Shown here piece after piece: positions 47,041-64,000 of a DNA stretch of 64,000 nt. A program made the translations under genes and the position numbers. How positions within the stretch are numbered: position 1 is the first letter of the stretch; each line of letters starts with the position of its first letter. The notes under the pieces are model-generated. The model saw nothing but the letters and a program-made list of their open reading frames with translations, was not told where the DNA came from and did not search any database. This DNA comes from Actinomycetota bacterium (lineage in GTDB: Bacteria > Actinomycetota > Actinomycetes > Mycobacteriales > Mycobacteriaceae): NCBI GenBank assembly GCA_036338755.1, contig JAYZBN010000007.1, positions 3,702 through 67,701 of the forward strand. Reading direction: 5' to 3'.

Positions 47041-48753
47041 TCAGTGGTCGATCAGCGGGGCGACCCAGTGGACCCGGGTGCCGCCGCCGGGCGCACTGGT
47101 GATCTCACAAGTGCCGCCGAGTTGTTCGGCGCGCCGCTTCATGTTGGCCAAGCCGCTGTGCCGCGTGTTGCCGGCCGGTATGCCGCATCCGTCGTCGACC
47201 ACGTCCAGGGTGAAGGTGTCCGCGACGCTGACGTCGACGGTCAGCCGCGACGCGCCCGCATGACGCAGGGCATTGCTGACGGCTTCGGTGGCGACGGCTT
47301 CGGCGTGGTCGGCCAGTTCGGTACCGATGGCGGTCGTCGGCCCGTCCAGGCGCACGGTGGCGACGAGATCACGGTTTTCGGTCAGGTCGGCCACCACCCG
47401 CTGGATGCGCCGGCGGAAATCACCGCTCGCGGCGATCGGGTCCTTGAGCGCGAAGATCGTCGTGCGGATTTCCTCGATGATGGTCTGCAGATCGTCGAGC
47501 GTGCGATTGAGCCGCTCGGCCACTTCGGGCGAACGCGCCCTTGCCAGCGTGCCTTGCAAGTTCATCCCGGCCGCGAAGAGGCGTTGAATGACGTGGTCGT
47601 GCAGGTCATGGGCGATGCGTTCGCGCTCAGCCAGGATGGCCAACTGCCGCGCGTCCTCGCGTGCCGACGCCAGCACCAGCGCGATGGCGGCATGCGTGGC
47701 GAAATCGCTGACCAGGTCCAGATAGCTCTCGTTGAACGGCGGCTGCTCGGCGCCGCGGGCGATCGCGATCACCCCGACGACCTCGTCGCGGGCGCGTAGC
47801 GGCATCACGATCGCCGGGCGCTGCCCGACGTCGGTGAAGGCCTGGATCGGGTACTGCAATTCCTCGGTGATCAGCGGTTCGCCGGATCGGTACACGGCGC
47901 CGCTGGTGGAGCCGTCCACCGGAACCCGTTGACCGAGCACATCGGAGGCGTGCAAACCCACCGCAGCGGAGACCACCAGCGTGTCGGCATCGTCGTCGGC
48001 CGCGTCGGCGTCGGCCGGCACCAGCACGATGGCCTGTTCGGCGCCGGTCAACACGCGCGCGCGTTCGGCGATCAGTTGCAGGGGGCGGTGGTGCGGTTCG
48101 GAACGTGACAACAGCGCGGTGGTGATCTCGCGGCTGGCCTCCATCCACTTCACCGATGTCCGTTCGCGTTCGAAGACCTGCGCATTGTCGATGGCGACGG
48201 CGGCCGCGAACGCCAACGCGCGGGCGGCAACCTCGTCGGACTCGGAGAACACCCGCTTTGGATCGGTGTGGGTGAGATACAGGTTGCCGAACACGGTGTC
48301 GCGGATGGTGATCGGAACCGCGAGGAAGGCACGCATTCTCGGATGGTGCTCGGGAAAACCGACGGCGGCGCGGTGCGTCGTCAGATCGTCCATCCGCAGC
48401 GCGGGCGTGTCCAGCAGTGACAAGCTCAACAGACCCCTGCCGACCGGCAGGTGCCCGATGCGCGAAACCGTCTCGGCGTCCATGCCCTCGTGGACAAACG
48501 ACTTCAAGTTGCCGTCGCGATCGCGGATAGCCAGCGCGCCGTATTGTGCGGAGGTCAAATCCCTTGCCGCACTGAGGGTCCGATGCAGAGTGGCGTCGCG
48601 ATCGAGGCCCGCGCCGATCTCGACGATGACCCGAAGCAATCGCTCCATCTGATCGCGCGCGTCCAGCAACTCGTCGAGCTGGGCGTGCATCTTGGTGACC
48701 AGCCCGCGCTGCCCGAAATCCGTGGACCCCGAGCCGTTTTCGCCGCCGGTCAC
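47041..48753 (-). CDS. devS: Tandem-GAF heme sensor histidine kinase of the DevS/DosT type
   Basis: GAF-A block [39 protein letters not shown]...[17 protein letters not shown] parallels DevS. HisKA_3 ([16 protein letters not shown]) and HATPase domains follow. The GTG start overlaps the devR stop codon (GTGA). Confidence 0.85.
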
Positions 48754-49418
48754 CCCGACCAGTCCGGCGCTGTCGATGATGGGCCGGCCCGCTGATTCAG
48801 TTTCGAAGCGAACACCGCGGCCTGGGTGCGGCGCTCCATGCCGAGTTTGGCCAACAACCGCGAGACGTAGTTCTTCACCGTCTTCTCCGCGAGGAACATC
48901 CGCGCGGCGATCTGCCGGTTGGTCAATCCCTCGCTGAGCAGTCCGAGCAGCGTTCGCTCCTGCTCGGTCAGCCCGGACAGCGGGTCGTCGCGCGCGGTCG
49001 TACCCCGCAGCTTTGCCATCAGCGCCGCGGCCGCCCGGTTGTCCAGCAGCGATTTACCGGCGCCCACCTCTTTGATCGCGTGGGCCAGCTCCATGCCCTT
49101 GATGTCTTTGACGACGAACCCGCTGGCGCCGGCCAGGATCGCCTCGAGCATCGCCTCGTCGGAGGTGAACGACGTCAACATCAGGCAGCGTAGGTCGGGA
49201 TGATCCGACACCAGGTCGCGACACAGTTCGATGCCGTTGCCATCGGGCAGACGAACGTCGAGGACGGCGACGTCGGGCGACAGCGCCGGTATCCGCGCTT
49301 TCGCCTCCGCCACCGTGCCGGCCTCGCCGACGATCTGGAGATCGGGGTCGGAAGCGAGCAGATCGGAAAGACCGCGGCGGACGACTTCGTGGTCGTCGAC
49401 CAGGAACACCTTGACCAT
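48750..49418 (-). CDS. devR: Dormancy survival response regulator (NarL/LuxR family)
   Basis: Long runs identical to M. tuberculosis DevR/DosR as I remember it: [95 protein letters not shown]. Confidence 0.92.
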
Positions 49419-49636
49419 GGCGGGCCCTTTCCTGCCGGTCTATCAATCGCGGCAGACCAACCCAATATCTCATATGTCTCGGCGGATGACGTCGAGAAGA
49501 AACTGGTTCAACGACTTTGGACCCTGCGGGTGAGGACGTTCGGCCGATGTCGCTTCAATAGCGTTGCGGCCGTGGCCCATTGCGGGACGGGTCGATTCCC
49601 CGCAGGGGCAGGTCCGATGACCGCTTAGGCCTGCGA

Positions 49637-50611
49637 TCAATCGGCCCACTCGACGAAGTCGCGGAGGTCACGTCGCGGGGTCGCCGGCAACGGGTCGGCG
49701 TTGATCGGCGCCCAACCCACCCGAAGCAGCATCTGCGCGTAGTTGCTGTCGCCGAAGATGCCGGAGCGGACCGCTGCGCGGGTCTCGGCCGTCTCCAGTG
49801 GTTCAGTGACCGGGCAACTGGCCAGTCCCGTCGACGTCGCGGTGAGCAGCACGACGCTGGTGGCCTCACCGGCGCGGAGCTGCGCCAGCCGGTCGTCGTG
49901 GCGGGTGCCCAACGCGAGAACCACGGCGTTGTCGTCGGCCGCGGACGAATCCGGCGCCATCGGCAGTGTGGCACCGGCGAATAGCCGACTCGGTATCTTG
50001 GCGTCCGGATCCGATATCGGCGTATTTCGGGCGGGAACGCCCGCAACCGAGAAGTAGCGCCCACTCCACGTCGTGAGCTCGGCGAGATAGTCGTTGGTCA
50101 GGTGATCGCGGACGGATTCGGCGACGATGTCGTGCAGCCTGTCGATGTCTTCCACTTGGCACAGCGTGACACCGGTGCGGGCGGCCCGCGCGGCCATGAG
50201 CGCGATATCGCCCATCGGCACCGCCCAGGAGCTGTAGTGGCGTCGATCGGTTCGCCGCCGGGGGATGGCCGCGGCGAGCGCGATGTCGACGAAATCGGCC
50301 GACTGAGGCCAAAGCTCGATGGTGGCAAGGTGATCGGGGTCGTCGGCGTTCGGCAGCCGACTCACCCGGGAGCGCCATCCCACCGCCGCGAACGCCGCAA
50401 CGCAGTGATGCAGCGCCGTCCCGCAACTCAGGATCAGGTCGCGGCCATCGGGATCGGTGTTGGGGAGTCGACGGTCGGGGTCGGCGTACAGCTGCAGGCT
50501 TGCCGCCTCGACGCGCCAGCGCCATGGCTGGGTGTTGTGCACCGACGGGGCGCGCGATGCCAAAGTCAGGGCCGTCCGGATCGTGCCGGCGTCCGGAAAG
50601 CGGATGCTCAT
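49637..50611 (-). CDS. Acg-family FMN-binding nitroreductase-like protein (Rv2032/Rv3131/Rv3127 family)
   Basis: LTLASRAPSVHNTQPWRW signature. 324 aa. Confidence 0.85.
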   Translation of the reverse strand: MSIRFPDAGTIRTALTLASRAPSVHNTQPWRWRVEAASLQLYADPDRRLPNTDPDGRDLILSCGTALHHCVAAFAAVGWRSRVSRLPNADDPDHLATIELWPQSADFVDIALAAAIPRRRTDRRHYSSWAVPMGDIALMAARAARTGVTLCQVEDIDRLHDIVAESVRDHLTNDYLAELTTWSGRYFSVAGVPARNTPISDPDAKIPSRLFAGATLPMAPDSSAADDNAVVLALGTRHDDRLAQLRAGEATSVVLLTATSTGLASCPVTEPLETAETRAAVRSGIFGDSNYAQMLLRVGWAPINADPLPATPRRDLRDFVEWAD

Positions 50612-50750: not shown

Positions 50751-51911
50751 ATGCTGGCCACGATGGCGAATCACGGCCCCGATCCCACCACGCCGCTGTG
50801 GCGCGCGGCGCAGGTGTTCCGGTTGCTGAGCTGCGTCTATGCCACCGGATTTCAGATCGCGGTCAACCCGGATCTGATTCGGCCCGCGCTGGGTTGGGTG
50901 CTGTTCGCGGCCCTGATCGGTTGGAGCGCGGCGTGCGCGTTCGCCTACCTGCGGGGGTTCGGCCGCAAACCGGCGTGGGTGCTCGCCGAGCTCGTGGTCG
51001 TCGTCTTGCTGATGTGGTCGAACACCTTCGTTGCGAGCCCGCACTGGGCGGCCGAGAACCAAACCTGGCCGACGACGCTATGGGCGAGCAATCCCACGAT
51101 CTCGGCCGCCATCCAGTTCGGCCCCGCGGGCGGAATGCTGACGGGATTGGCGGTGATGGCCACCAACTTCGCCGTCAAGAACTACCTCGCGCTCAACCTC
51201 GGGCACAACGCCACGATCATCATCGAGCTGGCGATCGGCATGGCGATCGGGATGGCCGCGCAAACCGCGCGCCGCGCCCACGCCGAGCTACAACGAGCGG
51301 CCGAGTTGACGGCTGCGGTGCAGGAACGCGACCGGCTGTCGCGGCAGGTACACGACGGAGCCATCCAGGTGCTGGCGCTGGTCGCCAAGAAAGGGCATGA
51401 GATCGGCGGCGCCACAGCAGAACTCGCCGACCTGGCGAGCGAGCAAGAACGCGCGCTGCGGCGCTGGCTGGCGTGCACGGACATCGGCCAGGAAACAGAC
51501 GGCGCCACCGTCGACCTGCGCACGCTGCTCCAATGCCGGGAATCCGATCGGGTGTCGTTCAGCCTGCCCGGCACCCCGGTGCCGTTAGCACGTTGGGCGG
51601 CAACCGAACTCGACGCAGCGGTGGGCAATGCGCTGGACAACGTGGTCACCCACGCCGGTCCGGATGCGCACGCGTTCGTACTCGTGGAGGACCTCGGCGA
51701 TTCCGTTCTGGTCAGTGTCCGCGACGATGGAGTGGGAATCACCCCGGGCCGGCTCGAGGAAGCGAAGCGCCAGGGACGGCTCGGCATCTCCCAATCGATC
51801 GTGGGACGGTTGACGTCGTTGGGCGGCAGCGCCGAATTGCGCAGCGAGCCCGGAGAAGGCGCCGAGTGGGAGTTGTGCGTGCCGCGCGGGGAGGGACGCC
51901 ATGGCGGATGA
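50751..51911 (+). CDS. Membrane sensor histidine kinase (HisKA_3 type, polytopic N-terminal domain)
   Basis: About 5 TM helices, then DRLSRQVHDGAIQVLA (H-box) and a HATPase domain (NALDNVVTHAG...DDGVGI). The start could be the ATG at 50763. Confidence 0.8.
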   Translation: MLATMANHGPDPTTPLWRAAQVFRLLSCVYATGFQIAVNPDLIRPALGWVLFAALIGWSAACAFAYLRGFGRKPAWVLAELVVVVLLMWSNTFVASPHWAAENQTWPTTLWASNPTISAAIQFGPAGGMLTGLAVMATNFAVKNYLALNLGHNATIIIELAIGMAIGMAAQTARRAHAELQRAAELTAAVQERDRLSRQVHDGAIQVLALVAKKGHEIGGATAELADLASEQERALRRWLACTDIGQETDGATVDLRTLLQCRESDRVSFSLPGTPVPLARWAATELDAAVGNALDNVVTHAGPDAHAFVLVEDLGDSVLVSVRDDGVGITPGRLEEAKRQGRLGISQSIVGRLTSLGGSAELRSEPGEGAEWELCVPRGEGRHGG

Positions 51912-52566
51912 CGGGACGCCGACGACGGTGATGGTGGTCGACGACCATCCGATCTGGCGTGAGGCGGTCGCTCGTGACCTGGCCGAGCACGGCTTCACCG
52001 TGGTCGCCACCGCCGACGGGGTGGCGGCCGCACAGCGGCGGGCGGCCGCGGTCCAGCCCGACGTGGTGGTGATGGACATGCAGTTGACCGACGGCGACGG
52101 CGCGCAGGCGACCGCCGCGGTGCTCGCGGTCTCGACCTCATCGCGGGTGCTGGTGTTGTCGGCCTCCGACGAACGCGAGGACGTGCTGGAGGCGGTCAAG
52201 GCCGGCGCGACGGGATACCTGGTCAAGAGTGCCTCGAAAGCCGAACTGGCGCAGGCGGTCACGGCCACGGCGGCGGGGCGGGCCGTGTTCACCCCGAGCC
52301 TGGCCGGGCTGGTGCTCGGCGAATATCGGCGCATCGCGCAGAGCAAGGACGACGGCCCCGCGCGCCCCAGCCTCACCGACCGTGAGACCGAGGTGTTGCG
52401 TTATGTCGCAAAAGGGCTGTCCGCCAAGCAGATCGCCAACAAGCTTTCGCTGAGCCATCGCACGGTGGAGAACCATGTGCAGGCGACATTCCGCAAGCTT
52501 CAGGTCGCCAATCGCGTGGAGCTGGCTCGCTACGCTATCGAGCACGGCCTGGACGAAGAGCCGTGA
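51901..52566 (+). CDS. NarL/LuxR-family response regulator
   Basis: Receiver domain (VMVVDDHP...VVVMDMQL) plus the LuxR HTH LTDRETEVLRYVAKGLSAKQIANKLSLSHRTVENH. Overlaps the kinase gene by 11 nt. Confidence 0.9.
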   Translation: MADDGTPTTVMVVDDHPIWREAVARDLAEHGFTVVATADGVAAAQRRAAAVQPDVVVMDMQLTDGDGAQATAAVLAVSTSSRVLVLSASDEREDVLEAVKAGATGYLVKSASKAELAQAVTATAAGRAVFTPSLAGLVLGEYRRIAQSKDDGPARPSLTDRETEVLRYVAKGLSAKQIANKLSLSHRTVENHVQATFRKLQVANRVELARYAIEHGLDEEP

Positions 52567-54299: not shown

Positions 54300-55583
54300 C
54301 TACTCAGATTTCAACGGTGTATCGCGGCGCCACGGCAGTACCGCCGCCGCAGCGGCCGCGGCGCCCACGCCGATCGCGGCGGCGACCACCGTCGCCACCC
54401 GGACGCCGGCGAACTCGGAATCCACGATCGGCTTGACCACCGCCACCACGGCAAGCGCCGGCATCACCAGCCGCACCCACCAGGCCACCACGCTGTCGCC
54501 GGGGATCCGCGAATTAGCCTCTGTGACAAACACATACAGCACCATCAGCAGCAGGGGCACCGCGCCGAAGATGGCCGGCCCGATCCAGCCAGCGCGTTGC
54601 GCCGAGACCACGACGGCAACCACCGCGACGAGCCCCACCACCGAAAGTCGCAGACCGGCGTTCGGTGACGCCCCGCGCATCACCGCCAGACCCGAGGCGG
54701 CGCGCACCGCGGCCCAGCCGGACACCAGCGCGGCGGCCACAGCCAACGCGGTGCCGGCCACCGCCATCCACCACCGGCCGTCGTCGGCGTAGAACTCGGG
54801 CACGGCCTCGGCCAGCATCTTGGCGCTCCATCGCCACGGCCCCGCCACGCCACGGTGATCACCCACCCACAACACCACCGCGGCCGCGACCACCAGCGCG
54901 ACGGCCAGCGACATGGATCGCCCCGGCCTGGCGACGCGCGTGATGCGGAGGGTGAGCAGTTCGACGCCCACCATGCCCAAGCCGAAGCCGACGAGCTGGC
55001 CGGACAGCGGGCGCGGTGATGCGGCCGTCCCGATGACGACGGGGTCGGTGCTCAGCGCGACGAGGGCGATCACCGCCGCCGCGAGGCAGACGTAGAGGAG
55101 CAGGCCCGCGACCACGAGCGGCATCGCCAGCGACGCCACGACACGAGTCGATGTCCAACAGGCCGCGGCCCCGATGACGAGAGCCGCAGCCGCGGCGGCG
55201 ACCGGGAGCCACGACACGATCGCGGCGGGATCGTCACCGGGCGAAAGCACCTGCAGCGCTTGCAATCCGAGCGTCGCAGCGAACTTCCCTGCCAGCACCA
55301 GGTAGGCGAGCAGCTGAACGATGCCCGCGGCCGCCCCCGCTCGCGGCCCCAGCGTGGCGCCGATCAACTCGGCGGTGCTGCGCGCTTCCGGAGCATGGCC
55401 ACGCAACCGCGCCAGAGCGTAGATCACCGGAATCGCCACCGCCGCCCCGAGCAGCGCGCCCAGCCCGTACCAGGCCGCGGGCGCGATCACCGCCATGCTC
55501 AGCGCGGCGGCCCGCCACGTCCCTACCGTCGGGTCCCCCAAGCCGGTTTCCGGCTGCAGCGACAGGAGCGATTTCTTCGGCAT
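54300..55583 (-). CDS. Polytopic membrane protein (APC-transporter-like)
   Basis: 427 aa with about 12 hydrophobic segments. No specific motif recognised. Confidence 0.6.
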   Translation of the reverse strand: MPKKSLLSLQPETGLGDPTVGTWRAAALSMAVIAPAAWYGLGALLGAAVAIPVIYALARLRGHAPEARSTAELIGATLGPRAGAAAGIVQLLAYLVLAGKFAATLGLQALQVLSPGDDPAAIVSWLPVAAAAAALVIGAAACWTSTRVVASLAMPLVVAGLLLYVCLAAAVIALVALSTDPVVIGTAASPRPLSGQLVGFGLGMVGVELLTLRITRVARPGRSMSLAVALVVAAAVVLWVGDHRGVAGPWRWSAKMLAEAVPEFYADDGRWWMAVAGTALAVAAALVSGWAAVRAASGLAVMRGASPNAGLRLSVVGLVAVVAVVVSAQRAGWIGPAIFGAVPLLLMVLYVFVTEANSRIPGDSVVAWWVRLVMPALAVVAVVKPIVDSEFAGVRVATVVAAAIGVGAAAAAAAVLPWRRDTPLKSE

Positions 55584-55677
55584 TGCCTAAGCATGACCCA
55601 ACGGAGCACTTAATGGTTCCCGCAATGCGGCGCGGTTTCGATAGTTTTGTAGGCCCAGCGGCAGTGAGGACTTGACG

Positions 55678-56733
55678 ATGTCAGACACGGTGAAGGTGTC
55701 CGTCGACCGCGGCTCGGTCGCCATGGGCGACGATGTTGACTCGCACCGCGAGTTCTGGGTTTTCCCCGCCTCGGCCACGGTCGATGACTTGTTGGTCGAA
55801 ATCTCTTCGCACTTCTTACCGGGAATTGCCGGACCGGCCGGGTGGCGCGTGTATCTCGGGACTCGCGGCGACGAACAACAGCAAGTCGGCCTCATCTACA
55901 CCCGCGATGACCTCAACCAGCAGGATCAGATCTGCAGGTTATACCCCGGCGAGAGAACGCTGGGCGAGCTGGCCCGTTGGACGGGATTGCCGGAGTTGGA
56001 GGTATACGTGGCGTACCTGACCCATGACCAGGCCCGGCCAATGGCACTGGACGAGCTGACGGGCGGCCCCACGTGCACAGGCAGCCGACCGGTCAAGCTG
56101 GAATCCGAAGCGGCTGCCAATGCCAAGCGTGACTGGGTGATGATGCGCGAACTGGACCGACGCGCCTCGGGGGTCGCCGATGCGCGGCGCCAGTGGGTTC
56201 GGGCCAATCTGCTAGCGGCGCCGCCGCCGTGGATCGACGTCTTCATCGCCCGCAATTTCCACTACCTGACCGAGCTGCACTGTCCCGCCAGCATGACGCT
56301 GGCGGCAGAAATGCTGGGGATCAACGAATCCAGTGGAGAGCAGTTGGCGGCGCGGGCCAACGTCGACGTGCGCTCCGATGTCGTGATCCTGGCGATGGTG
56401 CTGGCCGCTTTCGAGTGGGGAGCCCAACGCGACACGTGGCGCGTCGGCGAAAGACCGTATTACAAGGCCTATCTGGAGATGCTGGCTCATTGCGGCTATC
56501 GGCTCTCTCCGATAGAACACGTTATGGCCGGCCACATCAGCATCGAGGAACTCAAACTTTCGGCGACCGACACCGCCCGACTCGACCGCATTCGGCAACT
56601 CCGAGACCAGCAATACCAGCTCCGGATGAACCGGTACTACACAAAAACGCTCAGCGAGGAGCAATACCGCGCCGCCATCGAATCCGTCCACGCCGAGCTG
56701 TCTGATCTGGGGGAGCTTCCCGGACCGATGTAG
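55678..56733 (+). CDS. Hypothetical protein, no recognisable domain
   Basis: ATG at 55678 lies 8 nt after GAGGA. 351 aa, cytoplasmic-looking. Codon third positions look less GC-biased than in neighbouring genes. Confidence 0.6.
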   Translation: MSDTVKVSVDRGSVAMGDDVDSHREFWVFPASATVDDLLVEISSHFLPGIAGPAGWRVYLGTRGDEQQQVGLIYTRDDLNQQDQICRLYPGERTLGELARWTGLPELEVYVAYLTHDQARPMALDELTGGPTCTGSRPVKLESEAAANAKRDWVMMRELDRRASGVADARRQWVRANLLAAPPPWIDVFIARNFHYLTELHCPASMTLAAEMLGINESSGEQLAARANVDVRSDVVILAMVLAAFEWGAQRDTWRVGERPYYKAYLEMLAHCGYRLSPIEHVMAGHISIEELKLSATDTARLDRIRQLRDQQYQLRMNRYYTKTLSEEQYRAAIESVHAELSDLGELPGPM

Positions 56734-56803
56734 GTCCTCGAAACCTACTGTATTCGAAGAGAATTGCCCTGCGCTACCGCCCGTTAGCTGGCGCATCGAG
56801 CGC

Positions 56804-57886
56804 TCAGGCGTCGATCACCACGCGCCCGGATTTCGCGCGGGAAACGCACACCAGCATCTCGTCATCACCCTCGACGGTGCGCCCGCGGCAATCGACCTGT
56901 CCCCCAAGCACTTTGACCTTGCAAGTTCCGCAGAACCCCTGCTGGCAGGAGTATGCGGTGGTCGAATCGCGGTCGAGCATGACGTCCAGCGCCGACCGGT
57001 TCGCCGGCACGCTGAGCACTCGCCGCGAGCGGGCCAGTTCCAACTCGAAGGGAACACCATCGACCACCGGCGGCGGGCCGAAACGTTCGTAGTGCAGCGG
57101 CGCGTCCGCGTGGTCGTTGCGCGCGATGCGCACCGATTCCAGCATAGGGGTGGGGCCACACACGTACACCGCCGTCCCCGGCCCCGCGTCGGCAAGCAAG
57201 TCGGACGCGGTGGGCAATCGGCCGCGCTCGTCATCGGCCCACACGGTGACCCGGTCCGGGGCCACCGACACCACCTCGTTCAGCAGCGGCATGTGATCTC
57301 GGCTGCGACCGGCATAGACGGCGCGCCAATCGATTCCGCGCTGCTGGGCGGTGCGGATCATCGGCAGAATCGGTGTCACCCCGATGCCGCCGATCACGAA
57401 CAACACCTCACGCTCGTCGGTGACGAGATAGAACGCGTTGCGGGGCCCTTCGAACTCGAGTTTGTCGCCGGCCTTGAACGCATCGTGCATTTCGATCGAA
57501 CCACCGCCACCCTCGGCGATGCGGCGCACCGCGATGCGATAGTCGGTGCGCCGGCCGGGCGAACCGCACAGCGAGTACTGTCGGCGCCGGCCCGATGGCA
57601 GCCGAACGTCGATGTGGGCGCCGGGTGTCCAGGACGGCAACAACCCACCGTCGGGGTCGACCAGCGTCAGCGCGACCACGTCGGGCGTCACTAGTTCGCG
57701 CTTGGCGACCACCGCGGTGGTGGTGCGCCGCACGGACTGAACCCGCGCGGATGTCCACCGCGACGCCGACGCTAGGCCACCGAACAGCGAACCGACGCCG
57801 TACAACGCGGTGTACATGCGGTCACGCTTGCGACGGCCGTACAGGTCGGCCGGGATGCTGTCCCAAATAGTCTGCGCCACAATCAT
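56804..57886 (-). CDS. FNR-like flavin reductase fused to a plant-type 2Fe-2S ferredoxin (PDR/VanB-type oxidoreductase)
   Basis: RQYSL FMN/FAD motif, GGIGVTP NAD motif, and a C-terminal CQQGFCGTCKV...C cluster. ATG at 57886 lies 8 nt after the upstream stop codon. Confidence 0.85.
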   Translation of the reverse strand: MIVAQTIWDSIPADLYGRRKRDRMYTALYGVGSLFGGLASASRWTSARVQSVRRTTTAVVAKRELVTPDVVALTLVDPDGGLLPSWTPGAHIDVRLPSGRRRQYSLCGSPGRRTDYRIAVRRIAEGGGGSIEMHDAFKAGDKLEFEGPRNAFYLVTDEREVLFVIGGIGVTPILPMIRTAQQRGIDWRAVYAGRSRDHMPLLNEVVSVAPDRVTVWADDERGRLPTASDLLADAGPGTAVYVCGPTPMLESVRIARNDHADAPLHYERFGPPPVVDGVPFELELARSRRVLSVPANRSALDVMLDRDSTTAYSCQQGFCGTCKVKVLGGQVDCRGRTVEGDDEMLVCVSRAKSGRVVIDA

Positions 57887-57894
57887 CCTCACAT

Positions 57895-58815
57895 CTAGCC
57901 GATGCCGCGACGGTCGCCGGAGGAGGCGATCAGGTCGACCCACTCACCGGTCAGCCGGGCGATGACGTCGGGGTAGGCGGTGACCACCCAATGCCCGCCC
58001 TCTATCGGCACGACCCTGCCGCCCTCCGGGATGGAGCCGGTAAACCGTTGCAGGGCGGGCGACACGAAATAATCCTGGCGCGCGACCAGCACCTGCACCG
58101 GAACGGTGGTCCGCGGCAACTGCGCCGGGGGCGCCAGCATCGGTGCGGGCATGTTCGCGCGATACAGGTTGAGCCCGTTCAGGTAGTCATCGACCGAGCG
58201 GTACTGACCGCCGCGGCTACGAGCGCCCGATCCGCCGATACGCTCAACGGCCTCAAAGACTTTCACCGTCGCCCGGGACCGGATCGCCAGCTCCGGCACG
58301 CCCGGGCACAGGAAAAACCAGATGTAGGACGAGGCCAGGACCTGTTTGACCACGTCGAGAAGCGCGCGCGGCGTGCGGGCCGACCGCAAAAATTTGCCCG
58401 CGTAGTTCAGGTGCGGGCCGGAGACGGAGGTGAACGAGGCGATCTTGCCCATCACGGCGTCGTCGGTGACCGCCGCCCAGGCCTGGATCGATCCCCAGTC
58501 GTGGGCCAGCAGGTGCACCTCGTCCACGCCGAGGCGCTCGATCACCGCGCCGACGTCGGCGACCAGCTGTGGCAGCCGGTATCCCGAACGGCCTGGCGGC
58601 GTTGAGGATTGGCCGGCACCGCGGACGTCGTACGCCACGACGTTGAATCGGCGACCCAATGTCGTCGCCACGCCGTCCCATACGTGGTGGTTGTCCGGAT
58701 AGCCGTGGATGGCCAGGATCGTCGGGCGCCCCGGGTCGATGTCGGTGTAGGCATGCACCGCCAGTCGCACGCCGTCGGAGGCGGTGACGGTAGTTGACAC
58801 CAATTCGTTCGTCAT
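57895..58815 (-). CDS. Alpha/beta hydrolase of the epoxide-hydrolase/dehalogenase class
   Basis: HGYP oxyanion motif and an Asp nucleophile elbow (LLAHDWGS). Start at MTNELVST (ATG at 58815), 2 nt after the upstream stop codon. The longer 490-aa ORF is rejected. Confidence 0.85.
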   Translation of the reverse strand: MTNELVSTTVTASDGVRLAVHAYTDIDPGRPTILAIHGYPDNHHVWDGVATTLGRRFNVVAYDVRGAGQSSTPPGRSGYRLPQLVADVGAVIERLGVDEVHLLAHDWGSIQAWAAVTDDAVMGKIASFTSVSGPHLNYAGKFLRSARTPRALLDVVKQVLASSYIWFFLCPGVPELAIRSRATVKVFEAVERIGGSGARSRGGQYRSVDDYLNGLNLYRANMPAPMLAPPAQLPRTTVPVQVLVARQDYFVSPALQRFTGSIPEGGRVVPIEGGHWVVTAYPDVIARLTGEWVDLIASSGDRRGIG

Positions 58816-58817
58816 CG

Positions 58818-59735
58818 TCAGTGCGACGCGCGGGCAGCGGGCGAGCGGGCCAGGTAGTCGACCGCGCGCCCGACCCCGCCCAGCTGGGAAGGATGGAAAC
58901 TCGGCGTGTAATAGGCGCCGATGACCCGGAGGAATTGGAACGGGCCGGGCACCAAACCCCGGCGCGCGGCGCGGAAGTAGTCTCGCCAGCGCGGCTTGGT
59001 GCCGGGGGGCAGGTAGGGGTCGACCGAGTACATGAATCGCACGCCGCGGACGAACAACCACAGCAGCGCCGGGGTGATCAGCAGCTGGGTGCGCACCTGC
59101 CGCCAATACCCGGCGCGCAGGTGCTTCATGGTGTCGAAGGCAACCGCTTTGTGCTCGACTTCCTCGGCGCCGTGCCAACGCAACAAGTCCAGCATCACCG
59201 GGTCGGTGCCCATGGCGTCGTGCTGCGGGGTGTCGAGAATCCACTCGCCCAGAATGGCGGTGTAGTGCTCGAGTGCGGCCACCATCGACACCCGCTCGAG
59301 CAACCAGCTCTGCCGCCGGCGTGGGCTCCACCGCGGCCGGTCGCCGATGAGTTGGGTGAATAGCCAACGCATTTGGTCGGTGAACGGGGTCACGTCGATG
59401 CCTTTGACCGCGAAGTGCCCGAGCACCCCCGCGTGCGCCTGGGAATGCATCGCCTCCTGGCTGATGAATCCCTGCACATCGCGGCGCAGCTGATCGTCTT
59501 TGATCAGCGGCAGGGTGTCCTTGAAAGCGGCGACGATGAACTCCTCGCCCGCCGGCAACAACAGGTGCAGCACGTTGCAGAAGTGCGTGGTGAAGGGCTC
59601 GTTGGGCACGTAGTAGAACGGCAGCGTCGACCAGTCGAAGTCGACGTCGCGCGCCTGCAGGACGATTCGCTCGTGGTCGAGCGAAGCGTCGTGCGGGCCG
59701 GTTGCCCTGTCATCGACGGTGAACATCGTCGCCAT
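58818..59735 (-). CDS. 'Predicted metal-dependent hydrolase' family protein with a ferritin-like di-iron ligand pattern
   Basis: Two E...ExxH pairs: GEEF-(about 30 aa)-QEAMH and ALEH-(about 35 aa)-EEVEH. 305 aa. Confidence 0.8.
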   Translation of the reverse strand: MATMFTVDDRATGPHDASLDHERIVLQARDVDFDWSTLPFYYVPNEPFTTHFCNVLHLLLPAGEEFIVAAFKDTLPLIKDDQLRRDVQGFISQEAMHSQAHAGVLGHFAVKGIDVTPFTDQMRWLFTQLIGDRPRWSPRRRQSWLLERVSMVAALEHYTAILGEWILDTPQHDAMGTDPVMLDLLRWHGAEEVEHKAVAFDTMKHLRAGYWRQVRTQLLITPALLWLFVRGVRFMYSVDPYLPPGTKPRWRDYFRAARRGLVPGPFQFLRVIGAYYTPSFHPSQLGGVGRAVDYLARSPAARASH

Positions 59736-59757
59736 CCCTTTCCGTCAGATCGTAAGG

Positions 59758-62700
59758 CTAGGCGCTGCGCTGCGCCTCGTCCTCCACCTCAGTGATCAAA
59801 CGCTCGCTGCGCAAGAACCGGACCAGATGATCGACCGTCTCGGTCAGGGCCGGCTCGCGCAGGCGGACCTTGGCCAGCCCGCGTCGGTGGCGGTACTGGG
59901 TGTTGTCGTAGCGCTTGTCCCGCATCGCCGCGATCTTGTCCGCCGACCGGGTGAGGAAATCGACCAGCGGGTACATCTGATCGTTCGGCGTGCAGCGGCG
60001 GTTCAGCTGCTCGGTGAACGACGGGATGTCGTGGTAGTCAAAGCGATACCCGTACCGCTCGGACAAGATCCGGGTGACGTCGGTGAGGTTGTAGTAGTCG
60101 TCGGCGGTCATGTTGAAAACACTGCAGACGCTGTCGTCTTTGGGCAGGCCCATCAGCGTGACGATGTGATCCGCGATCAGGTCCGCCGGCAGCAGGCTGA
60201 TCTGGTTGAGGGCGTTGACGGCGACGCCGTGCTCGATCATGAACGCCGTCAAGCGGACCAGGATGTCGTCCTGGCTGCCGAAGCCCGCGCGGGTCGGCGA
60301 GATCAGCGACGGCCGGTAGATGCGGACGTCGAGTCCCTTGCGCTGCGCGGCCAGCGCCAGCTGCTCGCCGACCCATTTGGTCTGCGAGTAGCCGAAGTCC
60401 AGGCCGGCCATCTTTTCGTTGGCGTCCCACTCCCCGACCACCGGCTCGGTGCTCCAGCCGTAGATGAACGTGCTGGAGACGAGATGGAAAGCCTTGCGGT
60501 GGTTGGTCATCGCCAGCCGCAACAGCTCGCGGGTGCCCTCGACGTTGGCCGGCCGCAGGGCGTCATAGGTGCGCACGTAGTTGACCAGGGCGCCGTTGTG
60601 CACGACGGCATCGACGTCTTGCGCCAGCTGTTGGAAGGCCGCCTCCCCGATGCCCAGCGCGGGCTCGGCGAGATCGCCGCAGACGACGCGGACCCGCGCG
60701 CGAACGTCGGCTTCCAGCGCCGGCGTCCATAGCTGGGCGCGGCGCAGCGACGCCACGATGCGGTCCAGGCCGTGCGCGGCGTCCGTGGCACGCACCAGCG
60801 CATGCACCGTAAAGGAGGTTTGCGCCAGCAGGCTGCTCACCAGGAACGGCCCGAGGAATCCGGTCGCGCCGGTGAGCAGCAGATCCGTGGGCTCACCCGG
60901 CCGCGCAGGTGCCAATTCCGGCAGCGGCAGTGCCGCGTCGGCCCGCATCTGCGCGGCTTCGTAGGCCTCGTACTCGGCGGAGATCTGATCCAGCGCGCGG
61001 CGCAGCGCGTCGAGCGGCTGCCCGGTCCCCTCGCCGAATTGGCGGACCAGCCCGAAGAATTCGGACACCGTCAGCCGCTGCAACAGGCGGGTGTTGACCT
61101 CTTCGGCCAGCTCCCCGGCGCCGTTCTCCGCCAGCAAGGCCTGCAGGTCGGTGCGGAGTTCGGCCAACGCCAGCGAGTCGATGCCGAGATCGGCGAACGA
61201 GCAGTCCTCATCGCCGCTCAGGTCGTAGCTCTCGATGAGATTGCGGAAGCGCTCCAGCGGACCCGCGCCGTCAGCCAGGCCATCGTGAGTTCGGTTGGCC
61301 GACTGGTTGATCCAGCTCGCGAAGGTGGGCAGCTTGCCGTCCAGCCACAGCTGGCGTGTCGACGAGCGCCGGATCTTGCCCGAAGTGGTCTTCGGAATGC
61401 TGCGCGGCGGTGCGAAAACGATTGTGTGCGGATCGATGTGGCAGTGCCGCCGGATCGCGCGGGCCAGGGTCTTGGCGTCCGGAAGGCTGTGCTCGTCGCG
61501 CGCCTCGGCGACGACGATCAGCGCCTCGGACTCATCGTGCTCGACCGAGAAGGCGGCGACGCAGCCCTTGCGGATCTGCGCGGCGGTGCGCTCGACGACG
61601 GCTTCGATGTCGGAGGGGTAGCAGTTGACGCCGCGGACGATGATCAGATCCTTGCTGCGGCCGCAGACGAACAACTCGCCCTCGTAGACGAAGCCGAGAT
61701 CTCCGGTCCGCAGGTAGGTGCGCTCGTCATCACCGGCGACGCGCGCGCCGAAGATCTCCGCGGTGAGCTCCGGCCGGTTCCAGTAGCCGGCACCCTTGGA
61801 GCGTCCGGCCAGCCAGACCTCGCCGACGCGGCCGTCGGGCAACACCCGCCGGGATTCGGGATCGACGATGCGAACCACGGCATCCTCGATGGGCTTGCCG
61901 CAGCTGACCAAGGTGACCTGGTTGCTGTTCTCGGGCAGCGCCTTTTCGACGCGGGCGACGTTGCGCTCCAGTCCACGCTTGTTCACCGCGATGGTCTGGC
62001 GCCCGCGGATCGACACGGTCAGGGTGAATTCGGCCATGCCGTAGGCGCCGGTGAGCGCCTCGGGCCGCAGGCCATACTCGGCGAATCGCTGCCGGAAGCG
62101 AGCGAAGGTGTTGGCGCGCAGCGGTTCTGCGCCCACCACGATGCATTCGAGGCTGCTGAGGTCCACGCCGGTCAACTCGGCGGCGGGCAGCTTGTCCTCG
62201 CGCAGGCAGTATTCGAGCGCAAAGTTGGGGCCCGGCGTGTGCGTGGCGCGCACGTCGCTGATCAGCCGAAGCCAGGAGGCCGGCCGGGCGAGGAAGTCCA
62301 AAGGCGACATCGCATGCGTGGTTCCGCCCAACAGCACGACGAACATGTAGGCCGAGATCAGCCCCATGTCGTGGTGTTGCGGCAGCCACGAGGCCACCAC
62401 CACGTCGCCGCCGCTGAAGGCGAAACCGTTGGCGATGATGTTGGCGTGGGTGACGATCACACCCTTGGGATCGCTCGTCGAGCCCGAGGTGTACTGCAGG
62501 AAGAGCACCTCGCCGGGCGTGTCCGCGACGGGCGCGCCGCCGAAGTCCTGGGCGCCGTCGGTGGCGAACCAGGGCAGCTCGGGCAGGCCGGCGCCGGATT
62601 CGTCCGCCCAGAGTTGCTGGCCGTGCCGTTGGCCAAGCAGCAGGCGGAAGTCATATTCGAACTGCTTCGTCGACAGCACGGCTTTGGCCCCGCAATCGCG

Positions 62701-63024
62701 GGCGATGAAGCTGAGCTTGGCGAGCCCGGAATCGAAGGACATCGGCAAGGGCGGGCTGACCGGAACGGCGATCACCCCGATGCGGGCGCAGGCATAGAGC
62801 GACGCGACCATTTCGAGTCCGGGCGAGTAGACCAGCAGTGCACGATCGCCCGATTCGAGGCCGGCCTCCTTGGACAGGTAGGCGGCCAGTTCACGGGTGC
62901 GTTCGGCGAAGCCCTGGTAGGTGTAGTGCTCGAGTTCCCGGCCATCGGCATCGACGAAGCGAAACAGGGTCTGGTCCGGCTTCTGCGCTTCCCACTTGTG
63001 TAGGTAATCGATCAGCGTCTCCAT
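59758..63024 (-). CDS. Fatty acyl-AMP ligase-ACP-thioester reductase tridomain enzyme (NRPS-like A-T-R)
   Basis: FAAL-type N-terminus (LQYTSGSTSDPKGVIVTHANI). Carrier-domain Ser in DLGIDSLALAEL. R domain with LLTGATGFLGPFL and YSQTK. ATG at 63024 follows the RBS AAGGGGGA. Confidence 0.9.
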   Translation of the reverse strand: METLIDYLHKWEAQKPDQTLFRFVDADGRELEHYTYQGFAERTRELAAYLSKEAGLESGDRALLVYSPGLEMVASLYACARIGVIAVPVSPPLPMSFDSGLAKLSFIARDCGAKAVLSTKQFEYDFRLLLGQRHGQQLWADESGAGLPELPWFATDGAQDFGGAPVADTPGEVLFLQYTSGSTSDPKGVIVTHANIIANGFAFSGGDVVVASWLPQHHDMGLISAYMFVVLLGGTTHAMSPLDFLARPASWLRLISDVRATHTPGPNFALEYCLREDKLPAAELTGVDLSSLECIVVGAEPLRANTFARFRQRFAEYGLRPEALTGAYGMAEFTLTVSIRGRQTIAVNKRGLERNVARVEKALPENSNQVTLVSCGKPIEDAVVRIVDPESRRVLPDGRVGEVWLAGRSKGAGYWNRPELTAEIFGARVAGDDERTYLRTGDLGFVYEGELFVCGRSKDLIIVRGVNCYPSDIEAVVERTAAQIRKGCVAAFSVEHDESEALIVVAEARDEHSLPDAKTLARAIRRHCHIDPHTIVFAPPRSIPKTTSGKIRRSSTRQLWLDGKLPTFASWINQSANRTHDGLADGAGPLERFRNLIESYDLSGDEDCSFADLGIDSLALAELRTDLQALLAENGAGELAEEVNTRLLQRLTVSEFFGLVRQFGEGTGQPLDALRRALDQISAEYEAYEAAQMRADAALPLPELAPARPGEPTDLLLTGATGFLGPFLVSSLLAQTSFTVHALVRATDAAHGLDRIVASLRRAQLWTPALEADVRARVRVVCGDLAEPALGIGEAAFQQLAQDVDAVVHNGALVNYVRTYDALRPANVEGTRELLRLAMTNHRKAFHLVSSTFIYGWSTEPVVGEWDANEKMAGLDFGYSQTKWVGEQLALAAQRKGLDVRIYRPSLISPTRAGFGSQDDILVRLTAFMIEHGVAVNALNQISLLPADLIADHIVTLMGLPKDDSVCSVFNMTADDYYNLTDVTRILSERYGYRFDYHDIPSFTEQLNRRCTPNDQMYPLVDFLTRSADKIAAMRDKRYDNTQYRHRRGLAKVRLREPALTETVDHLVRFLRSERLITEVEDEAQRSA

Positions 63025-63099
63025 GTCGGAGTGATCCCCCTTCCAGGTTGGCTTGGCCCGAGCACGACTCACGTCGGTAATTATTAATCCAATGTAGCG

Positions 63100-63430
63100 C
63101 TGTCGGCCTGCCCTTAGCAAAGGGTTGAACAGCCTAAATGGTCATCACACATTGCATTCACAGGATTCAGATACCCGTCTGATTTAAATGCACGGATGCT
63201 GATCTCCGCTGCTACGGATTTCAGTATCTCAGTCGCTCGCGACCAGGTATTATCCCTGCGTCACGGCCTGAAGTACTGAAGTACGTATCTACTAATCCAC
63301 GCATTTACTATAAACGGTCAAGCAACCGCCGCGGTCAATTAAGTCTTTTACCATCGTCGCACTCACAGGCCAAATCGCAAATAGAAATCGCAATTGTCCG
63401 CACGATAACGCGAGCCCGGAAACCGCGCGT
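63100..63430. promoter_or_regulatory. Unusually AT-rich non-coding region upstream of the FAAL-ACP-R operon
   Basis: About 0.3 kb with far lower GC than the rest of the window. Internal repeats: AAATCGCAA x2 (63372-80, 63385-93), GAAGTAC x2 (63270-83), GGATT(T)CAG(A)TAT x2, and the palindrome ATTTAAAT (63182-89). No plausible ORF. Confidence 0.6.
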
Positions 63431-63473
63431 GCGGGCGGGCCGCCAAGGGCGATTGGATGCCGGCCGCAGCCGG

Positions 63474-64000
63474 CTACGCGGGCCTGGCGATGCGGATCCG
63501 CGGTCCCGCGCGCGCCACCAGTTTCACGATGCCGAGGAAACGCTCACCGTCGATGATGGGCGACAGGGGTTCGTCCTCGGCTTCGATCGTCATCTCCTTG
63601 CCGTTGACGTCGCGCAGCCCGTTGCCGCGCAGCATGCCGTTGGTCAGTGCCGTCGGAAGCTGCGCCACGATCAGGGATGGCCGGAGGTTTCCGGCCTGGA
63701 AATGCAGCGCACCGGGCTCGGACGCCTTGGGGAACAACCGAAGCGGCCCACCGATGCGAAGGTCGATCGCGCCGGCGTGCAACAAGCTGTGCGTGCGCGA
63801 CGGAACCTCATCGCCGTCGATCACCACACGCGCCCGCGTCGGCGTGAACAGGATGGAGGCGTAGTTGGGCGTCTTCACCCGGCTCGGGGCGACCTTCGAG
63901 GTGAGGTAATCGCCGAAGCTGCGAGCGATCACCCGGGCGACCGCCAGCCGACCGTGATCGGGTGAGTCGTAATACCGGTCGTAGAAACGGTTCCCGACGC
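63474..64000 (-). CDS. C-terminal part of a diacylglycerol/lipid-kinase-like (YegS/Rv2252-type) protein, truncated by the window edge
   Basis: The frame stays open from 63932 to the window end (VGNRFYDRYYDSPDHGRLAVARVIARSF...). The C-terminal domain resembles the DAGK accessory domain. The assignment is tentative. Confidence 0.5.
   Translation of the reverse strand, partial: VGNRFYDRYYDSPDHGRLAVARVIARSFGDYLTSKVAPSRVKTPNYASILFTPTRARVVIDGDEVPSRTHSLLHAGAIDLRIGGPLRLFPKASEPGALHFQAGNLRPSLIVAQLPTALTNGMLRGNGLRDVNGKEMTIEAEDEPLSPIIDGERFLGIVKLVARAGPRIRIARPA

Follow-up and report, generated by a model that had tools for sequence, protein, structure and literature searches.

The window analysed here, 64,000 nucleotides of a contig from a member of the Mycobacteriaceae (JAYZBN010000007.1, positions 3,702 to 67,701), carries on its minus strand, at 56804-63024, four genes that are named g1 to g4 in their reading order. 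The central member is g2, a protein of the family PF10118, which Pfam lists as "Predicted metal-dependent hydrolase", a label found in every database source examined. The protein looks like an O2-activating dimetal oxygenase that is predicted to be fed with electrons by the reductase g4, a far better description than hydrolase. We are highly confident that g2 is a dimetal enzyme of the redox type whose function is linked to that of g4 and of the epoxide-hydrolase-type protein g3. The first gene, g1, combines a fatty acyl-AMP ligase (FAAL), a carrier domain and a thioester reductase domain (R domain). That the operon makes an oxygenated, reductively released long-chain lipid is a proposal to which we assign about even chances. 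The parts are known, as they belong to the superfamilies of FAALs, thioester reductases, ferritin-like dimetal oxygenases, epoxide hydrolases and phthalate-dioxygenase-reductase (PDR)-type reductases. New is the orphan lipid-tailoring cluster that they form around an uncharacterised, misannotated oxygenase family.

The four genes follow each other head to tail and are separated, as read from the junctions, by 22, 2 and 8 nt:

g1, 59758-63024, minus strand, 1088 aa; ATG preceded by GGAAGGGGG
g2, 58818-59735, minus strand, 305 aa; ATG preceded by GGAAAGGG, 22 nt past the TAG of g1
g3, 57895-58815, minus strand, 306 aa; ATG 2 nt past the TGA of g2
g4, 56804-57886, minus strand, 360 aa; ATG 8 nt past the TAG of g3

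The sequences GGAAGGGGG before g1 and GGAAAGGG before g2 are purine-rich, Shine-Dalgarno-like ribosome-binding sequences. Together with the tight gaps they support the organisation of g1 to g4 as one operon. An earlier sequence-only reading of this DNA had placed four minus-strand genes at these coordinates, with the same gaps, and had joined them into a single operon; open reading frame (ORF) coordinates and junctions bear this out. Downstream of g4 the end of a convergent ORF lies 70 nt away. Five terminator-like sites were counted in the operon region versus 4.3 expected from shuffled sequence, which is chance level, and a scan of the region for promoter and terminator patterns yielded nothing exceeding chance. 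Two antisense ORFs over g1 (59719-60732, plus strand, 337 aa; 60772-63003, plus strand, 743 aa) show no sign of being genes and were dismissed as the usual high-GC artefact. The window comes from Mycobacterium colombiense or a species very near to it, the g2 protein being 99% identical to its counterpart on an M. colombiense contig (L033); the exact g2 protein of the window had no record in the public contig collection.

Against PF10118 (Metal_hydrol), g2 scored 245 bits (cutoff 33.2) over the profile positions 1-245 of 247. A characterised member of the family was not found in the searchable literature under PF10118, COG3687, UCP07580 or IPR016516, and a search of the PDB with the g2 sequence gave no match at E<=1. 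In an alignment of 24 PF10118 members with 25-77% identity, the residues E64, Q93, E94, H97, H101, E156, T159, W187, H188, E191, E192 and H195 were invariant. The pattern is the twofold E...ExxH of dimetal-carboxylate proteins, extended by extra histidines as HxxxExxH. On the last ligand helix we take HxxxExxH to be the arrangement of AurF and CmlI. Proposed as metal ligands are E64, E94, H97, H101, E156, H157, H188, E192 and H195. A confident AlphaFold2 model (pLDDT 89, pTM 0.86) has these predicted ligand residues on four long helices (47-77, 81-110, 138-167 and 179-205). The top Foldseek matches of the model in the PDB were all ferritin-like dimetal proteins, with R2lox of M. tuberculosis, AurF, the R2 protein of ribonucleotide reductase, CmlI, VlmB and the Kitasatospora protein 6d9f among them. 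By four-helix bundle and E...ExxH sets, the modelled g2 would fit into the ferritin-like dimetal-carboxylate superfamily. Weak profile matches of the family were to AurF, Rubrerythrin and Ferritin_2. The AurF model PF11583 was missed by g2 with 16.2 bits versus a cutoff of 29.6 and was weakly matched by just 3 of the 24 members; Pfam scans of the same 24 members gave no match to the aldehyde-deformylating oxygenase (ADO) family at E<=1. Judged by these profiles, g2 would resemble AurF without being an AurF or an ADO member. Among 1.8 billion representative proteins searched were natural fusions of PF10118 with a reductase (P0122) and with a hydrolase (P0128, P0143 and P0175). The reading of g2 as an oxygenase is thus based on the ligand set, the modelled fold, the weak profile matches, the fusions and the adjacency of a reductase gene.

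This reductase, g4, contains in order the Pfam domains FAD_binding_6, NAD_binding_1 and Fer2. Its PDB matches were 2pia, aligned over residues 60-359 with 176 bits, and, from the self-sufficient P450s of the CYP116B type, the reductase domains 6laa and 6kbh; a weak match to PaaE reached 73 bits. RQYS at residue 102 is the flavin motif, and the 2Fe-2S motif of the C-terminal part, CX4CX2CX(n)C, starts at residue 314. These characters argue for a PDR-type flavin/2Fe-2S reductase.

The hydrolase g3 matches Abhydrolase_1 in Pfam and has the motifs HGYP (residues 37-40) and HDWGS (residues 105-109). The predicted catalytic set consists of HGxP at 37-40, the nucleophile D106, the cap tyrosines Y164 and Y218, the acid D248 and H275. 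H37-G-x-P40, D106, Y164, Y218 and D248 were kept in at least 95% of 53 homologs, and H275 in all 50 homologs long enough to cover the position. Epoxide hydrolases head the PDB matches, among them 5ng7, with which the two cap tyrosines align. With its full catalytic set, g3 is predicted to be an alpha/beta-fold epoxide-hydrolase-type enzyme. The protein also scored 315 bits against NF004514, below the cutoff of 455, aligning with profile positions 2-292 of 578. NF004514 is a family of 578-residue fusions of an epoxide hydrolase with a short-chain dehydrogenase/reductase (SDR), and g3 corresponds to the N-terminal half, without the SDR. Fused relatives pass the cutoff, as seen for the operon ortholog of M. 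xenopi with 750 bits and, with 848 bits, for a module gene of Streptomyces. EphD of M. tuberculosis is presumably a member of this family, too.

The three domains of g1 were delimited as follows:

FAAL domain, about 61300-63024, minus strand
carrier domain, about 60985-61242, minus strand; Ser617 in LGIDSL
R domain, about 59839-60879, minus strand; TGATGFLG at residue 718, YSQTK at residue 879

The adenylation domain (A domain) gave an AMP-binding match of 229 bits, and the C-terminal domain PF23024 is present (Pfam). The best NCBIfam matches are FAAL subfamilies with 361, 318 and 308 bits, each under its own full-length cutoff, and the top PDB matches are FAALs as well: 7r7e, the FAAL domain of an olefin synthase, 3kxw of Legionella, FadD23, FadD32 and FadD28. 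The A domain is therefore described as FAAL-like rather than acyl-CoA-ligase-like, as far as sequence matches tell. The carrier motif LGIDSL occupies residues 613-618 between A and R domains. Since the Pfam model PP-binding was missed slightly (19.4 bits versus a cutoff of 20.8), the carrier call is founded on motif and position; an LGxDSL motif was present in all of the 120 closest g1 homologs. The thioester reductase model TIGR01746 was passed with 244 bits (curated NCBIfam cutoff 213.35). In the R domain, the TGATGFLG-type Rossmann motif was conserved in 113 and YxxxK in 120 of the 120 orthologs. The nearest solved R domain is that of MxaA (4u7w), which we take to be a four-electron, alcohol-forming reductase; R domains of carboxylic acid reductases are more distant.

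The sequence-only reading had assigned a FAAL-carrier-reductase architecture to g1, a di-iron-type oxygenase to g2, an Asp-nucleophile hydrolase of the epoxide hydrolase type to g3 and a flavin/2Fe-2S electron donor to g4. Pfam and NCBIfam domain calls agree for all four genes, and the motifs that it had quoted (E...ExxH, HGYP, HDWGS) are present and conserved in homologs. The architecture of g1 was borne out by the family and PDB matches and the 120 orthologs. The assignment of g3 gained support from the catalytic residues of 53 homologs and the PDB matches, and that of g4 from domain order, motifs and the 2pia match. For g2, motifs, model and fold matches support an oxygenase, now termed a dimetal oxygenase, and not a hydrolase.

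Synteny was studied in the best 80 genome loci centred on g2 homologs. The counts were taken from tblastn coordinates and not from the ORF calls of the synteny table, which are heuristic (GC3-based, longest ORF) and misplace some starts. A g4 homolog was located on the same strand within 4 kb of the g2 homolog in 77 of the 80 loci, and two of the three exceptions were truncated contigs. A g3-like hydrolase was present in 54 loci, FAAL-R in just 8. In 31 loci hydrolase and SDR were joined in one protein of about 590 residues, an EphD-like architecture. Pair or trio occurred in Mycobacterium, Rhodococcus, Dietzia, Streptomyces, Kitasatospora, Amycolatopsis, Saccharopolyspora, Lentzea and other genera. 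Streptomyces, Kitasatospora and Amycolatopsis are not known to make mycolic acids, so the substrate of the module would not be mycolate-specific. The surroundings are housekeeping genes and depend on the genus, with ald, lrp and dapB in mycobacteria and the genes from dnaA to gyrB in Rhodococcus; the trio is thus seen as a self-contained module. In Rhodococcus it sits between recF and gyrB in the origin region dnaA-dnaN-recF-gyrB (L038, L041, L043, L045, L055, L060), an unusual home for a metabolic module. This setting was dropped as a functional clue, being uninformative on function.

A gene of about 490 aa resembling Baeyer-Villiger/flavin monooxygenases (BVMO) was observed directly upstream of the FAAL-less module in 17 loci, including those of Amycolatopsis. 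The gene precedes the g2 homolog in L011, L013, L014, L018, L022, L029, L039 and others. Its position hints at a longer oxidation series from epoxide to diol, ketol and ester.

A reduced version of the module appears to exist in M. tuberculosis. In M. haemophilum the gene order is ribF-rpsO-gpsI-pepR-NMO-ald-lrp-Polyketide_cyc2-PF10118-reductase...dapB. The oxygenase of this locus shares 77% identity with g2 and the reductase 79% with g4; hydrolase and FAAL-R are missing there. We take this order to be that of M. tuberculosis from Rv2786c to Rv2773c on the H37Rv map, by which Rv2777c-Rv2776c would be the corresponding pair of oxygenase and reductase. The searchable literature on Rv2777c and Rv2776c held expression or SNP data only and nothing on function. 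The pair shares oxygenase and reductase with the window operon and differs from it by the lack of FAAL-R and hydrolase.

The FAAL-linked copy of the module makes up one clade in slow-growing mycobacteria. Homologs of g1 with 77-94% identity were present in M. colombiense, M. mantenii, M. marseillense, M. malmoense, M. heidelbergense, M. europaeum, M. heckeshornense, M. noviomagense, M. xenopi, M. branderi, M. interjectum and M. seoulense. The order g1-g2-g3-g4 was kept in all 13 FAAL-R loci examined, the window included, and can therefore not be a chance arrangement. With this recurrence and the 77 adjacent g2-g4 homologs, the co-conservation that had been looked for on the basis of the earlier reading was found. 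The hydrolase of the FAAL-linked loci of M. xenopi and M. branderi is a full fusion of epoxide hydrolase and SDR. One metagenome-assembled genome contains both copies, FAAL-linked (L008) and at the ald locus (L011), and in a neighbour-joining tree all FAAL-linked g2 proteins group in a single clade next to the remaining mycobacterial copies. Hence, g2 to g4 of the window are understood as a paralog of the ancestral module that was joined once to a FAAL-carrier-reductase. Since the module works without FAAL elsewhere, FAAL-R was apparently brought in to supply the module with a substrate of its own or to release it. Upstream of FAAL-R, the loci examined always had a co-oriented DAGK_cat lipid-kinase-like gene at a distance of about 450-950 nt. 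Two genes outside the window diverge from it, one for a PRK06197-type SDR and one for a DMT-family transporter. This block of seven genes (DAGK_cat, SDR, DMT, g1-g4) is shared by the M. colombiense group with M. xenopi, M. malmoense and M. branderi, and behaves as a unit because the flanking genes differ between the species. Neither the paralogy of g2 to g4 nor the seven-gene block had been part of the sequence-only reading.

From the observed genes, domains, motifs, fold, co-conservation, fusions and paralogy we infer substrate, reaction type, order of steps and product. The FAAL domain of g1 would adenylate a fatty acid and load it onto the phosphopantetheine arm of its own carrier domain. 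For the oxidation, electrons would pass from NAD(P)H to the flavin of g4, on to its 2Fe-2S cluster and to g2, which would activate O2. Most likely, g2 would epoxidise a double bond of the acyl chain; a hydroxylation is less likely. The oxidation may occur on the thioester-bound chain or after its release. The hydrolase g3 would open the epoxide to a vicinal diol, and where it is fused to an SDR, as in M. xenopi and M. branderi, the diol would probably be oxidised to a hydroxy-ketone. The R domain of g1 would release with NAD(P)H an aldehyde, or an alcohol after a second reduction. The kinase-like gene, the SDR and the DMT transporter may phosphorylate, modify and export the product. As a speculative illustration, oleate could be converted via the 9,10-epoxide and the 9,10-diol to a 1,9,10-triol upon reduction. 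For any specific substrate, our confidence is lower than for the overall scheme. Epoxidation is favoured for two reasons: the catalytic residues of an epoxide hydrolase are complete in the most consistently coupled, sometimes fused partner, and EphD (Rv2214c), which shares the two-domain architecture of the fused form, acts in vitro as a hydrolase of 9,10-cis-epoxystearic acid and has an effect on epoxy- and keto-mycolates (PMC7998700).

Several observations weigh against this scheme. The type of reaction cannot be read from the fold of g2, because the same fold supports hydroxylation, desaturation, N-oxygenation, halogenation, deformylation and C-C cleavage. The Foldseek matches were remote (E 0.01-0.2, TM 0.3-0.55), and the extra histidines of g2 resemble the N-oxygenases AurF and CmlI more closely than known epoxidases. 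The metals could be Fe/Fe or Mn/Fe, and biochemical data for any PF10118 protein were not found in the searchable literature. Among the weaker matches of g3 were haloalkane and fluoroacetate dehalogenases, which share the Asp-nucleophile fold. As M. tuberculosis and M. haemophilum have the module without the hydrolase, the product of the oxygenase might not be an epoxide in every case. Reduction and oxygenation may also run in either order.

A second explanation for the operon, with the dehalogenase matches in its favour, is that g2 hydroxylates, desaturates, halogenates or cleaves the chain on the carrier of g1, and that g3 serves in proofreading, in detoxification or in a role of the dehalogenase type. 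Characterised soluble ferritin-like enzymes for long chains mostly use thioesters of acyl carrier protein (ACP) or CoA; the dimetal enzymes BioE (PMC12704756) and CylC (PMC8406957) oxidise such bound fatty chains. The position of g2 directly after the FAAL-carrier-R gene, at a distance of 22 nt, also agrees with a carrier-bound substrate. Yet no dedicated carrier protein is encoded near the ancestral module, g3 finds its best full-length matches among epoxide hydrolases and conserves the two cap tyrosines typical of them, and EphD, the closest characterised architecture, has epoxide hydrolase activity. We consider this explanation unlikely. A catabolic or detoxifying module for unsaturated lipids, alkenes or xenobiotics seems quite improbable. 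Epoxidation, hydrolysis, dehydrogenation and, in loci with a neighbouring BVMO gene, the formation and cleavage of an ester would then follow each other, and FAAL-R would channel scavenged fatty acids. A detoxification role has been proposed for mycobacterial epoxide hydrolases (PMC7998700). The FAAL-less module in its housekeeping settings, at ald-dapB in mycobacteria and recF-gyrB in Rhodococcus, and the BVMO-like gene upstream in 17 loci would suit such a role. Against it, the FAAL-linked block with kinase-like gene and DMT transporter moves as a unit from one genome context to another, resembling a biosynthetic cluster. FAAL-carrier-R enzymes avoid CoA, so that the acid is kept from beta-oxidation, and are typical of biosynthesis.

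The formation of alkanes had been an option in the sequence-only reading, by analogy to the cyanobacterial couple of acyl-ACP reductase (AAR) and ADO: the aldehyde released by g1 would be deformylated by g2, reduced by g4, to the Cn-1 alkane and formate. The C-terminal thioester reductase of g1 can yield an aldehyde, g2 is a putative ferritin-like dimetal protein with an electron donor, and ADO requires a ferredoxin-type reducing system (PMC9743570). For the Kitasatospora protein 6d9f, one of the remote fold matches of g2, an aldehyde-deformylating activity has been described; the protein aligns poorly, however, with a TM of 0.32, and g2 has no Pfam match to ADO. The g2-g4 pair in 77 of 80 loci is almost always without an aldehyde-forming enzyme nearby, and alkane formation leaves the coupled, sometimes fused epoxide hydrolase or its SDR fusion without a role. 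The nearest solved R domain, that of MxaA, is presumably alcohol-forming. The option is therefore weakened, as the trio mostly lacks an aldehyde source, the hydrolase becomes superfluous and g2 reaches the Pfam threshold of neither ADO nor AurF, and we regard it as very improbable. Hardly credible at all is that g2 is the metal-dependent hydrolase of its annotation and stands next to the reductase gene by coincidence. Every source gives this name, and Pfam itself marks it as predicted; the name is a prediction only, for which a characterised member was not found in the searchable literature. In 77 of 80 loci a reductase gene stands beside that of the PF10118 protein, some proteins unite the two, and the predicted fold and ligand set of g2 are typical of O2-activating dimetal proteins.

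A characterised pathway with this gene set had no match in the searchable literature, within which the earlier reading's failure to match the combination to a described mycobacterial lipid pathway was confirmed. Literature on FAAL, reductase domain and fatty aldehyde in mycobacteria comprised the FCR wax-ester system, Nrp/kupyaphore and general FAAL papers, none of which fit the cluster. A bioRxiv interactome paper of 2026 on ferritin-like proteins and epoxide hydrolases was set aside, as it concerns EphE/PimA and DUF4439 and not these genes. With AurF, CmlI and R2lox, the modelled g2 shares the dimetal four-helix-bundle fold, the top Foldseek matches and a weak AurF Pfam match. It differs by the score below the AurF cutoff, the low TM of 0.35-0.54 and the lack of a PDB sequence match, and the operon has neither an amine-forming gene nor an amine substrate. 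R2lox crystals hold a long-chain fatty acid ligand. The AAR/ADO couple is similar in combining an aldehyde-making reductase with a ferritin-like di-iron enzyme that draws on an external electron donor; in the operon, the reductase is a FAAL-carrier-R enzyme and not an AAR, g2 is outside the ADO family and an epoxide hydrolase belongs to the unit.

PaaABCE and BoxAB are di-iron epoxidases that act with an FNR/2Fe-2S-type reductase on CoA thioesters. They have in common with the operon the set of di-iron oxygenase, flavin/iron-sulfur reductase and a downstream enzyme for ring or epoxide processing; their substrates are aromatic CoA esters, and no similarity of sequence was detected between g2 and either PaaA or BoxB. 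Stearoyl-ACP desaturase is a ferritin-like dimetal enzyme acting on a carrier-bound chain. BioE and CylC resemble g2 as soluble dimetal-carboxylate enzymes associated with a FAAL/ACP system and catalysing O2-dependent oxidation of an unactivated chain. They belong to other sequence families, and the abstracts and excerpts consulted describe neither an operon with PDR-type reductase and epoxide hydrolase nor a terminal thioester reductase. The relation to EphD is closest in M. xenopi and M. branderi, whose operon orthologs are full epoxide hydrolase-SDR fusions of which g3 represents the N-terminal half. The window g3 differs by lacking the SDR half, and the fused operon genes are located elsewhere in the genome than ephD, probably as paralogs.

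The region upstream of g1 contains further features:

g1 leader/promoter region, 63025-63473, minus strand, about 450 nt, lower GC
conserved inverted repeat, 63213-63232 and 63268-63287, 20-23 nt, TACGTA..TCAGTA / TACTGA..CCGTA
DAGK_cat lipid-kinase-like gene, 3' half, 63474-64000, minus strand; truncated at the window boundary, 83% identical to the complete homolog of L009

An alignment of eight species covered the leader and revealed conserved blocks nearer to the g1 start, TTTGCT...TACATTGG. The arms of the inverted repeat are 35-47 nt apart and about 190-260 nt upstream of the g1 start. Such repeats were found independently in the window, in M. malmoense and in M. xenopi, occur in other species too, and are probably an operator pair for some regulator; outside the window they lie, for example, at 8723-8806 of L086 and 8650-8724 of L085. 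Additional TCAGTA-like copies lie close to the inverted repeat. An Rfam scan of 56000-64000 matched no family. On the other side of the operon, the segments 47041-50611 (minus strand) and 50751-52566 (plus strand) encode, a few kb away, two kinase/regulator pairs, the first made up of a DevS/DosT-like GAF-GAF histidine kinase and a LuxR-type response regulator, together with an Acg-like nitroreductase. They are followed by a 427-aa multi-pass membrane protein (54300-55583, minus strand) and a 353-aa protein (55672-56733, plus strand), both without Pfam family and conserved in L003 only. The DevS/DevR-like and nitroreductase genes and the ORFs of 54300-56733 were rejected as partners, as they accompany the operon in L003, the closest relative, only. 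In M. xenopi, M. malmoense and M. branderi the operon has other flanking genes, which puts these neighbours outside the system.

We tentatively extend the scheme to a generalisation that we consider rather unlikely in its full breadth: PF10118 proteins would be unrecognised O2-activating dimetal lipid epoxidases or chain oxygenases across the Actinobacteria, including Rv2777c of M. tuberculosis, and would supply, with a dedicated PDR-type reductase, the physiological substrates of EphD-type epoxide hydrolase-dehydrogenases. In slow-growing non-tuberculous mycobacteria, a duplicate coupled to FAAL-carrier-reductase, lipid kinase and transporter would then lead to a new class of oxygenated, possibly phosphorylated long-chain polyol lipid. 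If this is true, a family of thousands of members, including one in M. tuberculosis, moves from "hydrolase" to redox oxygenase, and the EphD-type epoxide hydrolases gain a genetic partner and a candidate epoxide source. The FAAL-linked version provides a handle on the substrate, since the specificity of the loading enzyme can be assayed, and the fusions P0122, P0128, P0143 and P0175 are useful single-polypeptide versions for biochemistry. For opportunistic pathogens such as M. colombiense, M. xenopi, M. malmoense and their relatives, the cluster points to a lipid that has yet to be described, and the presence of the same module in M. tuberculosis and most Actinobacteria widens its interest.

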